Origin: Octopus vulgaris
Lineage: Eukaryota
DNA length: 64,000 nucleotides
Direction: 5' to 3'
Assembly: GCA_951406725.2 (NCBI GenBank)
Contig: OX597827.1
Location: forward strand, 59,396,001 to 59,460,000
In this document: piece after piece, positions 8,461 through 58,362 of the stretch
How the letters are laid out: every line of letters starts with the position of its first letter
How positions within the stretch are numbered: position 1 is the first letter of the stretch
Program-made: the position numbers and the translations under genes
The notes under the pieces: model-generated
What the model saw: the letters and a program-made list of their open reading frames with translations, nothing else
Told to the model about the DNA's origin: nothing
The model's database searches: none

Positions 8461-9696
8461 ATAGGGGCTTTGTAAATATTTTGATCATGTCCGATGTAAG
8501 GCGATCTTTCTGAGCAATTCGTTCTCTGCTTGTATTAAAACTAATTTCACCCCCATCAATTACTCCTTGCGGGAGGTGTCCTCATGCACCAGACCACGTG
8601 AAACGCCAAATTTCATTTTCGAGACCAACTCAAAGCTTCTCTCTTCCGCTGCTCCATTGCCCCAAACATCTGGGCCAAAGTGGCGGCATGTCATTATCAA
8701 GACTTGATGGAAAATAACAGACGTCGGGAAGTAGAAATCAGACGTCAAGGACGCAAAAACGGCGGCTCACACTTTCTCGTCTCCTACCGGCACCCTACCC
8801 CTGTGGTGAATGACCTCGGCTCTTCTGTGCCGCCTTCGGCTTGAAAAGCCACTTCGGGCACCGGCGTCCTTTGCACCCATTAGAATGGGGAGGCTCAACA
8901 ACGAGCTGCATATCTACTATACATATACAAGTTCACACCGACACCAACGTCGACAATAATATATATATATATATATATATATATATATATATATATATAT
9001 ATATATATATGTATATACATGATCACAGGAAGAGCACTCGGCTATAGAAAATCTACCTCAACAAATTCCTTCTGACCTATATAAACATGGAAAAGTGGAT
9101 GTTAAATGATGATGATGATGATGATATCTGAAAAATTTTAAGAAAAATTTCTTGAAAAAGATTTCCTTAAATTAAAAATGATCAATTATACAAAGAAGTC
9201 TTAAAAAATAGCAAACCGACAATAGTCTTTTTAATATATTTAATAATTTTTACTTTAGAAAAATCTTTCTCATATGTGTGTCTGTGCGTGCGTGCGCGCG
9301 CGTATATGTATGTGTGCGTGTGACTTGCCCGCTTAGCCAGGGGTGTGATATCATTTGAGTGATAAAACAATGTGAAGAAGCGCATTGTGACCAACGGTGT
9401 ATAACAATATCTAATAGTCTTGTTGATACAGTGATATACACACACACACACACACACATATATATATATATACGTATATATATATATGTATATATATGTA
9501 CGTATATGTATATATATATATATGTATACGTATATATATATATATGTATACGTATATATATATATATATATATATATATATATATATATATATATATATA
9601 TATATATATGTAGGTTCCGGGTTGAGTCGGGGTTAACCACAGTAAATAAGGTACTCAATACATAGCAGAGTAAATTAATTTATTTTATAGAAGGAG

Positions 9697-9743
9697 CTTC
9701 TACAGGACTAGAACTGTTTCATTCAAAAGAAATCATCAGGAAG
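9697..9743 (-). ncRNA. Type I hammerhead ribozyme motif with intact core, in probable PLE remnant
   Basis: CUUC-CUGAUGA-UUUC(UUUU)GAAU-GAAA-CAG(UUCUAGUC)CUG-UA-GAAG. Confidence 0.65.
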
Positions 9744-10471
9744 AAACAGTTCTAGTCCTGTAGAAGCTCCTTCTATAAAATAAATATATATATATATATA
9801 TATATATATATATATATATATATATATATATATATATATATATATATATATATATATAATAACTATTTTTCTCAACTTACGGTCCTTCACCTCATTTTCT
9901 TTTCCTTTCAGCGGGGTTGTGCTTTCCTCATCCTACATATTTCGTTCATACTCCTCTTTTTTTTAACCAAACTTTCATGAACCGTAATCGGTTCATGCAA
10001 GTGTCAGTCTTATCATAGAAGTAGAAACATATACAACGTTTAATAGTCTCTCTTGAGCAGCTTTTCTCATTGACAATGACATCTGTGCTTACCAGCATTT
10101 ATATATATATATATATATATATATATATATATATATATATATATATATATATATATATATATATATATATATATATATATGTATGTATGTATGTATGTAT
10201 GTATGCATGCATGCATGCATGTATGTATGTATGTATGTATGTATGTATATAGCGGTTATGAGAGGTAATAGTGTCAATAAGACCCAAAGGTGTCAGGTAA
10301 TGCTGAGTAAATGCTATGGATAGACCATAGTTAAGCTCCAGGTTCGGTGATTATGCGAATAAGGTGTCCAACGTAGGTCATATATCAGTATGTGTATATA
10401 TAGTAAAAAAAAAGGTTTCAGAATGGGATAAAAAACCGAGGCTGTGAAGGTTTTAGAACATTTATAAATAG

Positions 10472-10519
10472 GTCTTACAGCTGTTTCCAGGATATTTATT
10501 ATATCCCTTCATCGGAGAC
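10472..10519 (-). ncRNA. Minimal type I hammerhead motif with U4C change
   Basis: GUCU-CCGAUGA-AGGGAUAU(AAUAA)AUAUCCUG-GAAA-CAGCUG-UA-AGAC. Confidence 0.6.
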
Positions 10520-10750
10520 GGTGTGAGAAAATGGTTAAGAAATAGTTAAGAAATAGTGTACATATATATTCCTCTCCCCTTACCGAAAGCTGAACAGTTA
10601 TCCCCATTGCCCACAACACAATAATAACGACAACCAATTACCTTCCCTTATTTTTCTACTTGTGAAGTTATTCACTCGTAAATATCATCACACACAACAT
10701 GGACAAGAATTTCTTCTTAAGAAAATATATATTCAGATAAATAAACCCTA

Positions 10751-10785
10751 ATATCATGAATAGCGAAAGCGAAACCGGTCGATAT
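10751..10785 (+). ncRNA. Minimal type I hammerhead motif, A3-U8 core variant
   Basis: AUAUC-AUGAAUA-GC(GAAA)GC-GAAA-CCGG-UC-GAUAU. Confidence 0.6.
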
Positions 10786-11242
10786 ATTAAAAATTATATT
10801 AAAACTATGTAAAGTTTGTGTGTGTTTTCCTTATTTAATTTCTTACATATATTAGAACTCACCACGTGGGGATAATCGAAATTCACCCCTTTCTGTTACT
10901 ATATATATATATATATATATATATATATATATATATATATATATATATATATGTATATATATGAATATATATTCATATATATATATGAATATATATATAT
11001 GTTTAATAGAAACATTGTTGTTCCTAAATCCCTCAACGAGAGATATTCAGTAGCAGCACTTTGAAGTAACGATTTTTTGCCAACCTAATGTGGCAGGTCC
11101 GTTTTGGGTCGAATGCGCGTTCAGTTCATTAAACTGCAAACCAATAGCAATAAAAGTTTAAGAAGAGCTAAAGCGAATGTTGAGATTAGACGACTTGGAA
11201 GAATAGAAAACAGACGATCTTATTGATATTTGAAAAAATTCG

Positions 11243-11460
11243 TTTTCTTTGCAGCTGTTTCAATGACTCACACTAAAACATTGTCAACCAAACAACGATT
11301 ACATAATTCTTAATTATAGTTATTAAATTAATTTGGTTAGATTACTTTAGTTGAATGTAACTCATTTAACTAAATTAATTTAATGGCTATTAATCAATAA
11401 TTATTTATTTATTTGCTCGACAATGTTTTAGCATGAGTCATCGAAACAGGTGTAGGAAAA
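11243..11460. repeat. Diverged AT-rich foldback, ~100-bp arms
   Basis: CTGTTTCAATGACTCACACTAAAACATTGTC / GACAATGTTTTAGCATGAGTCATCGAAACAG; TTAAATTAATTTGGTTA / TAACTAAATTAATTTAA. Confidence 0.8.
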
Positions 11461-55902: not shown

Positions 55903-55974
55903 AGAATTTCCATGTCACTAAGTCCACGTATTGACATCTCTGTGACACATTTGATACGGTTGTTGTCCAATTGC
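55903..55974 (-). CDS. slit: Slit, 72-nt LRR exon (D1)
   Basis: ttttctag|GCAATTG...ATTCT|gtgagt; QLDNNRIKCVTEMSIRGLSDMEIL (SLIT2 [24 protein letters not shown]). Confidence 0.95.
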
Positions 55975-56475
55975 CTAGAAAAGAAAAAGAAAAAAAGAAG
56001 AAAAATAAAGATGAAAACAAACTGAGATTACGACGAATGTGGTGTCCACCACAGTGGATGAAAGGATTAAAGACATATACTTACCTCTTCGTCCAAGCCC
56101 TCGTTAACTAGTATTTAAAAAATTTCCACTTGGAAAAGAAAATTGAGACTAAAAATGGCGGGAAAGTGTAGCTGAAATGGCCCGAGTGATATAGCTTACC
56201 TTAGGATATACATATAGCAGTGATTCTGCTATATGTGTATCCTATATGTGTATCGTGAGTTTATTTGGTAAAAATAAATAATGACCATCCCGAAATAAAA
56301 CAATATCTGTTTCAATACACGGCTTCACATCAGGAATCTCGCAAAAAATTCATATATATATATATATATATATATATATATATATATATATATATATATA
56401 TATATATATTATAGTTCATTTTTGGATTTGGTTTGCAAGATTCTTTATATGAGTTCGTTTGTTGAAGCATATTCT

Positions 56476-56769
56476 GTTGTGTCTGGGGAGTCATTTTCTT
56501 TCTGTGCCTTATAATGTAACACACTCACCGTTAAAATTTCCACTTATTTCTTATTTTTATTTTCCTAAATTTTCCTTGCGTCTTGCAACTTTTTCAATAG
56601 TCTTGACTCTCAAGACTCTCAAGGCTATTTGAGAATCAAGACTATTGAAAAGGTTACAAGACGCAACGAATATTTTAGGAACATAAAAATAAGAAATAAG
56701 CGGAAATTTTACCGGTGAGTGTGTTACATTATAAGGCACAAAAGGAAAATAACTCTCCCCAGACACAAC
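56476..56769. repeat. Foldback element, ~135-bp arms, inside (TA)n
   Basis: GTTGTGTCTGGGGAG...TCTTGACTCTCAA / TTGAGAATCAAGA...CTCCCCAGACACAAC. Confidence 0.9.
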
Positions 56770-57652
56770 GGTATATATATATATATATATATATATATAT
56801 ATACGCATGAAGCTTTTGGACCTTGAGTTACTCTGTTGCTTCTGCTAAATATTAATATATATATATATATATAATAATAATAATAAATATTAGGGAATAA
56901 ATCCAAATTTATTATGTATTGATTAAGTCTTTCCTTGTTTGTTTTGCAAAATAGTGGTTTTGTCTCTAATAATATTATATATATATATATATATATATAT
57001 ATATATATATATATATATATATACACACAACCAAAGTGACTGCATCTATGTATACATAAAAGTGCAAACGCATATATAAAGATACACAGAATAAGAGAGA
57101 AAGGGGGAGGAATAAGGAGAGAGAGAGAGAGAGTGAAAGAGAAAGAGAAAGAGAAAGATGGCGGTGAAGAGACAAAAACGCATACAGATATGCATGAAAA
57201 TATTGTCTGACTCTTCAAAGATTGTGGGAATTTCTGAGTTAAATCTACTAACCGCGTGTAATAGTGTGTGTTTTACTGCACATGCATTGTATGTGCATGA
57301 GTGTGCATGAGTGTGCCTGTGCGCGTTTATGTGTGTGTGTGAGTGTGTGCATGTGTGCGTTTCTGTGTGTTTCTGTGTGTCCGTGTCTGTATGTATTGAA
57401 GACAATACAGAATGGTATACGGTCATAGAACTTCAATCTAATTACAACGGCGCAGCAAAACGCCGTCTTGATAATAATTGTTCGCGTTGCAGATAAACCA
57501 TATTGTATAACGGCAACGGATAAAACTGAAAACAAACCATTAAATAAGCATAGAACAACAACATCAACAACAACAACAACAACAACAACAACAAAGATAC
57601 CGATATAATAAGTAAATAAATAAATTAATAAAGAAATAAATAAACTACTTAC

Positions 57653-57724
57653 AAATTCTTGAGGCGAGGAGCACCTTTTAATGACTTTCTTCCGATACTT
57701 TCCAGCTTGTTATAACTCAGATCT
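57653..57724 (-). CDS. slit: Slit, internal 72-nt exon, LRR domain D1 (first exon seen in window)
   Basis: cag|AGATCTG...AATTT|gtaagt; phase 2-2; translates DLSYNKLESIGRKSLKGAPRLKNL, matching the Slit D1 repeat (SLIT2 [24 protein letters not shown]). Confidence 0.93.
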
Positions 57725-58317
57725 CTGGATGCGAGAAAAAGAAAGAAAAAGAAAGGAAAACGATTATTTTTGAATTGTCATCTATTTAAAGAGCAGAGTA
57801 AGTAGAGTGAAGTGTCTTGTTGAAGAGGTACACTTTAAATAAGAAAAATAAAGGTGACATACAAATACATACAATCACACGATACATATATATATATATA
57901 TATATATGCATATATATGTGTATATACATGTGTATAAATATATATATATATATATATGCATATTCGTATATATACATGTATATTTGTATATATACATATA
58001 TATATACCATTACTATTATTTACAGGATTGTAAAATTCGGCGGCGTATAAGAAAACCATTCAAACCATTCGCACCGAAGTATATATATATATATATATAT
58101 ATATGCATATTCGTATAAATACATATATATTGGTATATGTACACACACACACACACACACATATATATATATATATATATATATATATATATATATATAT
58201 ATATATATATATATATATATTGTAAATCTATCTATCTGTCTGTCTATCTGCTTATCTGTTTATCTACATTTATGTACACGCAAACACATAAATGCAAATA
58301 TATGTATATAAGCATGC

Positions 58318-58362
58318 ACTCTCTGAAGAGTCTAAAGGAAGACGAAACTATTAGGTATGATT
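58318..58362 (+). ncRNA. Hammerhead motif with intact core and degenerate stem I
   Basis: CUGAAGA-GUCU(AAAGGA)AGAC-GAAA-C(UAUUAG)G-UA. Confidence 0.5.

Follow-up and report, generated by a model that had tools for sequence, protein, structure and literature searches.

Minimal hammerhead motifs in the introns of octopus Slit: the 3' end of a Penelope-like element and likely remnants of related families

The 64,000-nucleotide stretch of the Octopus vulgaris genome analysed here (contig OX597827.1, positions 59,396,001 to 59,460,000; hereafter, the window) carries exons of the Slit gene, and the Slit introns contain about a dozen hammerhead-shaped motifs, mostly damaged, in about ten inserts, one of which is a Penelope-like element (PLE). 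Sequence searches identified 11 Slit exon stretches, from 1792 to 57720, all on the minus strand; one window exon shows 98% identity with Slit of Octopus vulgaris, and solved Slit structures were matched as well. Minus-strand motifs are therefore sense to the Slit pre-mRNA, as had been assumed in the original prediction, which was made from the sequence alone. The identified exons bracket every motif except those at 58323 and 617, which lie outside the outermost exons found and which we infer to be intronic.

57720, 55970, 34045-33974, 28216, about 21951-21805, 20284-20213, 18355-18284, minus strand: identified Slit exons.
12155-12084, 3948-3877, 2688-2617, 1792, minus strand: identified Slit exons, continued.

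The PLE and its hammerhead occupy the following positions.

45721..48521, plus strand: 5'-truncated Neptune-type PLE, with an open frame at 45721-47904 and a terminal repeat region on its 3' side; it runs antisense to Slit and is flanked by (TA)n at either end.
48386..48423 (core 48391), plus strand: minimal type I hammerhead of the PLE, with a 5-bp stem I, a 4-bp stem II, the palindrome ACGU and A6U.

The frame at 45721-47904 is uninterrupted and encodes a reverse transcriptase (RT; RVT_1, E 1e-7), a CX4CxxC linker and a GIY-YIG domain (E 0.004), so that the element has the one open reading frame (ORF), coding for a PLE-type RT and, at its C terminus, a GIY-YIG nuclease, that defines endonuclease-containing (EN+) PLEs. 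The same succession of RT, a CX2-5CxxC linker and GIY-YIG is described for the Neptune/Nematis clade (Craig et al. 2021, PMC8557442), to which the element is provisionally assigned from its linker and domains; its relatives show 44-63% identity. The frame stays open for about 120 codons past the endonuclease, in C/T-rich low-complexity sequence (47545-47904, plus strand). The hammerhead with its core at 48391, which has an extra A after A9, lies about 490 nt behind the ORF stop, on the element strand, within the 3' terminal repeat. This motif belongs to the tail of a PLE that sits in a (TA)n tract.

We collected 80 related metagenome loci, of which 34 had the ORF end plus at least 250 nt behind it. 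An element-strand minimal hammerhead is present within 1.5 kb of the ORF end in 15 of the 34, a few of these being one-mismatch matches and possibly chance, and the opposite strand has none. The stems covary among the related-element motifs, which were chosen for having stems. Naiads, as described in PMC8557442, lack canonical hammerheads. In three related loci (L008:1054-1093, L019:942-981 and L078 near 116), the hammerhead recurs on the opposite strand, at a distance of 2.3-3.2 kb upstream of where the ORF ends, the same inverted-copy arrangement that is seen in the window, and a U3-A8 hammerhead (L032:1653-1697, minus strand) and U4C copies (near L024 1199 and L026 2266) also occur among these loci. 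No PLE relatives were confirmed in viral contigs.

The other motifs were called by the layout of the published minimal hammerhead (Cervera and de la Pena 2014, PMC4209133), and the hammerhead numbering rests on our own reading of the sequence. Those named in the original prediction are given with the position reported there; the last four lines are the inserts that it missed and the one candidate not counted as a hammerhead.

9610..9785 (originally 9697), minus strand: insert between two (TA)n tracts, a 43-bp perfect foldback with an exact core at 9739-9706; the two core boxes are exact, stem II has 3 bp, stem I is lacking and stem III is not a palindrome.
10472..10519 (core 10515; originally 10472), minus strand, sense to Slit: minimal hammerhead with U4C, a 4-bp stem I, a 7-bp stem II and the palindrome ACAGCUGU, in a high-copy repeat at about 10250-10548.
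10751..10785 (core 10756; originally 10751), plus strand: minimal hammerhead with an A3-U8 core pair, a 5-bp stem I, a 2-bp stem II and the palindrome ACCGGU; the core reads AUGAAUA, and the host is a second repeat, at about 10560-10890.
33280..33451 (core 33353; originally 33280), minus strand: decayed hammerhead-like motif, identified by eye, with A6G, a long distorted stem II, a 3-bp stem I and the palindrome ACAGCUGU, in a foldback whose inverted half copy (33406-33451, plus strand) retains CUGAUGA.
52421..52455 (core 52425), plus strand: decayed minimal hammerhead with C11.1A, A15.1G and a 4-bp stem I, identified by eye (covariance model E 0.24).
58323..58357 (originally 58318), plus strand: exact core with a 4-bp stem II, no stem I and a non-palindromic stem III.
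20528..20797, both strands: G3-C8 foldback, with zero core mismatches and a 7-bp stem I at 20673-20723 (plus) and the same plus U4C at 20601-20651 (minus).
602..736 (core 617), plus strand: third G3-C8 copy, with G3 and C8 kept, A9U and G12A.
20872..21259, both strands: U3-A8 foldback, complete and sense to Slit at 20917-20964 (minus), with A9U and A15.1G at 21167-21214 (plus).
19305..19440, plus strand: repeat flanked by (TA)n tracts, in which CUGANGA and GAA occur; another copy lies at 38369-38432, and the repeat is left out of the hammerhead count.

Thus, among the eight motifs of the original prediction, three are well formed (10515, minus; 10756 and 48391, plus), four either have decayed or have no stem I, and the one placed at about 19358 is no hammerhead: at 19338 (plus), and likewise in the second copy at 38402, only CUGANGA and GAA are present, with neither an A15.1-U16.1 pair nor stem I. 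The copies at 19305-19368 and 38369-38432, with CUGANGA (the N differs), a 3-bp hairpin and GAA, resemble the core-only motifs of Naiads (PMC8557442). A palindromic stem III, which had been attributed to most of the motifs, is found at 10515, 10756, 48391 and 33353, with stem III non-palindromic at 9739 and 58323. Stems I and II together with a palindromic stem III are present in 10515, 10756, 20644, 20680, 20960 and 48391, and this combination is absent from 9739, 58323 and 19338. None of the motifs combines a canonical C3-G8 core with a stem I of at least 3 bp, and no stem-I-bearing copy has the CUGANGA and GAAA core with an NUH site; three motifs have the canonical core if a Watson-Crick swap of the 3-8 pair is permitted, and two have it without stem I. 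A further foldback at 11233-11468, with arms 75% alike and a GAAACAG-type box near both ends, is possibly another decayed PLE end; it was left out of the motif count because it has no clear first core box.

We compared the motif frequency with local dinucleotide shuffles, using descriptors that were fixed after inspection of the sequence. With a Watson-Crick 3-8 swap allowed, there are three zero-mismatch motifs against 0.029 expected (at most 2 in 1580 shuffles) and five with no more than one mismatch against 0.17 expected (shuffle maximum, 4), 20644 and 20680 being the arms of one foldback; exact cores without stem I number two against 0.05 expected, a count reached in 4 of 1459 shuffles. 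Hence the motifs are real in the sense that they exceed chance, and the original prediction, which was to be abandoned if their frequency was no higher than in shuffled sequence, stands on this point. An independent covariance model, for which 13 motifs from related elements were the sole input, gave one significant match in the window, 48385-48424 (E 1.8e-6); of the 11 matches that it returned, the four that follow are 52425, 20960, 58323 and 9739 (E 0.24-1.3), 10756 ranks eighth, and 10515 was not found by this model. The Rfam hammerhead models gave no match in three focused stretches and none among the 150 of 617 whole-window matches listed, in a scan dominated by microsatellite matches. 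A strict descriptor without the extra nucleotide misses 48391.

In three motifs the 3-8 pair of the core is swapped, namely A3-U8 (10756), G3-C8 (20680) and U3-A8 (20960), and it was by allowing any Watson-Crick 3-8 pair that the missed motifs were exposed: 20680 (plus) with its partners 20644 (minus) and 617 (plus), and 20960 (minus) with its partner 21171 (plus). G3 and C8 are retained in all three copies of the G3-C8 family. Variation among the copies of the stretch 10250-10895 was assessed in one RNA and three DNA runs, four of the 24 listed. Among the 40 of 172 variant rows listed, majority-copy differences appear at nearby sites and none at 10514 (U4C), 10756 (A3) or 10761 (U8), so that rare changes private to this copy are an unlikely explanation of these letters. 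The listed variants at N7 (10760), in loop II (10767) and in stem II (G.U to G-C, 10489) are those expected for a conserved fold. U4C at 10515 appears to be common in its family, not private, and is also found in two related metagenome loci. The 3-8 swaps and U4C are likely to be family traits whose fixation preceded the spread of the copies.

MITE-like elements (miniature inverted-repeat transposable elements) are another source of foldbacks, and the motifs other than 48391, especially those with swapped 3-8 pairs, might be chance look-alikes in AT-rich palindromic repeats of this kind, considering that the descriptors were tuned after inspection, that the covariance model gives these motifs E values of 0.24-2.8 or misses them, and that the Rfam hammerhead models match none in the three stretches scanned. 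We consider this explanation quite improbable in view of the excess over shuffles in all three comparisons, the persistence of G3 and C8, and the pattern of variation, which is listed at N7 and loop II in the A3-U8 family and, in the U4C family, as the replacement of G.U by G-C within stem II.

Some of these core changes have precedents. U4C is a natural viroid variant with reduced activity (Perreault 2011, PMC3088659), natural U3-A8 has been published (PMC4209133; PMC3088659), an engineered C3G/G8C change partly restores cleavage of a PLE hammerhead (Frangieh 2024, PMC11167929), and G3-C8 is also mentioned in PMC3884650. The window motifs share the pairing of positions 3 and 8 with these variants; whereas U3-A8 is natural and C3G/G8C engineered in those reports, G3-C8 and A3-U8 in the window are natural traits of repeat families, with putative activity. 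A3-U8, G3-C8 and a family-level U4C are absent from the 56 representatives in Fig. S3 of PMC4209133, and a full-text literature search found, among the papers listed, no report of A3-U8 or of natural G3-C8; Lunse et al. 2017, on PLE-associated variants, may cover these cores. A broader proposal would be that octopus families have swapped the 3-8 pair in every Watson-Crick direction (C-G, U-A, A-U and G-C within 64 kb) and include a very-high-copy U4C family, such that CUGANGA searches miss a large class of cleavage-competent animal ribozymes, among them undescribed natural A3-U8 and G3-C8 forms; we offer this as tentative and, at present, doubtful.

The original prediction had ascribed the inserts to PLEs. 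This holds for 48391, whereas the remaining inserts are linked to PLEs by architecture, with no ORF tied to them. A PLE origin is nevertheless likely for most of these motifs, because the minimal-hammerhead layout is common to them and four of the inserts show the inverted-copy arrangement typical of PLEs. The four foldbacks (9678-9785, 20528-20797, 20872-21259 and 33320-33451) fit the inverted 5'-truncated partner copies described for PLEs, which also favor (TA)n, a preference reported for three Octopus families (PMC8557442 and its supplement); the window appears to share 5' truncation, inverted partners and insertion in (TA)n both with Neptune/Nematis PLEs and with the Octopus Naiad/Hydra families. 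Opposite-strand hammerhead pairs 100-700 bp apart, as in the window, are described in PMC4209133 as well. The inserts fail to match one another, in accord with the earlier view that several families are present, and a repeat annotation of O. vulgaris includes 31 recently active Penelope-like families (PMC13282606). The inserts at 10250-10890 are high-copy, being matched by 5608-8303 contigs in each of the three DNA runs.

We therefore consider it quite probable that 48391 is the 3' end of a PLE in a TA microsatellite and that the other motifs are decaying 3'-end remnants of several related families, which, being single copies, would leave the Slit pre-mRNA uncut. In PLEs, reverse transcription begins close to the 3' end of the RNA and frequently terminates early, which is established for the class and would extend to these inserts; an early stop would leave short 5'-truncated copies that keep the terminal hammerhead, often with an inverted partner and preferentially in TA tracts. 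Where an active element is arranged in tandem, the palindromic stem III would join two motifs, which would then cleave the precursor, such that a motif would need a second copy (a dimer) and probably an element protein to cleave, and lone intronic copies without a partner would decay neutrally on either strand.

Several observations weigh against the origin of the inserts as PLE remnants. The PLE ORF is physically tied to one of about ten inserts; the others are unmatched by the window PLE or by the 80 related loci, and no autonomous partner was found for them. A single motif is individually significant under the independent covariance model, 9739 and 58323 have neither stem I nor a palindromic stem III, and the palindrome of the G3-C8 motif is all-AU, with a G.A mismatch at the stem II base in two copies. 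The proximity to (TA)n that had been noted is seen for the eight originally predicted motifs (median of 108 nt from (TA)6 against a background of 459, p=0.015) and fades to p=0.13 in ten independent inserts that include the missed ones, in a test for which the position of 33353 was 20 nt off and those of 617 and 21171 were off by 1-2 nt. Finally, 58323, ahead of a tRNA-like stretch, could be a remnant of a short interspersed nuclear element (SINE) or of a retrozyme. A pattern scan of metagenomes for the 10515 family gave 0 matches. Between the 33280 insert and locus L065 there is a match of 35 nt, which was dropped because it lies outside any hammerhead, and dimer folding of short fragments was not used as evidence since any palindrome or hairpin dimerises.

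The case of 58323 can be generalized: some inserts might be non-autonomous retrozymes or tRNA-derived SINEs with hammerheads of their own, mobilised by proteins of PLEs or long interspersed nuclear elements (LINEs). The short inserts have no ORF, the motif at 58323 has a canonical-type stem III loop with a weak tRNA-like stretch behind it, and animal retrozymes are described as non-autonomous PLE derivatives (bioRxiv 10.64898/2026.07.22.740005). The inserts resemble the animal retrozymes that lack long terminal repeats (LTRs) in being non-coding, intronic, hammerhead-carrying repeats, a few hundred bases long and connected with PLEs (PMC7229834; bioRxiv 10.64898/2026.07.22.740005). However, such retrozymes are tandem arrays of units each with a canonical type I hammerhead, whereas the inserts in the window, solo or inverted and mostly of the minimal palindromic form, do not have this structure; no head-to-tail tandem hammerhead units were found in the inserts or among the 150 of 271 tandem-search rows listed, and ARAGORN found no tRNA. 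On balance, this origin seems rather unlikely for the inserts. The tRNA-like stretch itself (58429-58486, plus strand; Rfam E 1.7) lies about 70 nt behind the 58323 motif and is a possible SINE head.

The original prediction further saw in the damaged sense copies a fit with selection against cleavage of the Slit pre-mRNA, noting also that some antisense copies are decayed; on this view, selection would have disabled or removed sense-strand hammerheads. The three sense copies that it listed are each imperfect, the sense arm of the G3-C8 foldback has U4C while its antisense arm is unchanged, the one long element, the PLE, is antisense to Slit, and a preprint reports a depletion of tandem retrozymes from the introns of Xenopus (bioRxiv 10.64898/2026.07.22.740005, in passages that include no strand test). 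In a tally by eye and descriptor of all 12 motifs, however, 1 of 5 sense motifs (20960, a complete minus-strand copy that had been missed) and 2 of 7 antisense motifs (10756 and 20680) are complete (Fisher p=1). The U3-A8 foldback has an intact sense arm, and its two core changes are both on the antisense arm. The foldbacks that carry motifs on both arms, two in number, thus decay in opposite directions and, as an internal control, disagree with each other. Sequestration, taken earlier as a sign of disabling in one sense copy, fares no better: the long hairpins formed by the foldbacks have similar folding energy on both strands, and since a foldback pairs on either strand, burial of the motif follows from the structure of the insertion. 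U4C, for its part, is found in two related loci, and its site in the 10515 family has no variant among the 40 of 172 rows listed despite majority differences nearby. Moreover, no selection is needed, given that single minimal hammerheads showed no cleavage in vitro (PMC4209133) and that the hammerhead of a lizard PLE required the protein of its element for cleavage (PMC11167929). We accordingly rate selection against the sense copies as highly improbable; a weak genome-wide strand bias may exist, the 12 motifs of the window being too few to judge. In the RNA run on 10250-10895, both strands are similarly represented, 89% of the reads continue into unlike sequence and there are no pile-ups of read starts or ends, an absence that we take as no evidence on cleavage because such libraries need not show them. 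Among the indexed runs, no RNA library was listed as containing the sequence.

The overall picture, scattered minimal hammerheads from truncated PLEs, is already known, and the window adds octopus examples. The motifs agree with the minimal hammerheads of PLE pseudo-LTRs (PMC4209133) in the short stem I, the extra nucleotide between A9 and stem II and the palindromic stem III, as well as in the number of divergent families that one genome contains, in the predominance of single copies derived from truncated elements, and in the presence of the U3-A8 variant. They differ in that the octopus copies lack a complete canonical core; that survey lists no cephalopod. A literature search for cephalopod hammerheads returned, among the matches listed, PMC8557442 as the sole one with all terms, and the short inserts were assignable to no named family. 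What changes is that the story of selection against intronic self-cleavage loses support. Should the A3-U8 and G3-C8 families be borne out, descriptors for hammerheads ought to accept every Watson-Crick pair at 3-8, and the many natural copies in octopus assemblies would serve to test which changes in the core are tolerated by PLE ribozymes and whether spread depends on cleavage.

Several other repeats in the window deserve mention. Where the G3-C8 and U3-A8 foldbacks adjoin, an exact 53-bp tandem duplication (20798-20903) copies the end of the U3-A8 family arm. Short frames at 41826-41990 and 34641-34799 (both minus strand), considered as possible pieces of a GIY-YIG endonuclease, received no support from searches. 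A broken LINE remnant with a zf-RVT domain lies at 60985-62160 (plus strand), and a dispersed repeat family of very high abundance, with units of about 180-280 bp that frequently form partial tandems, occurs at 1-284, 5812-6223, 12445-12820, 22053-22630, 34969-35204 and other positions.

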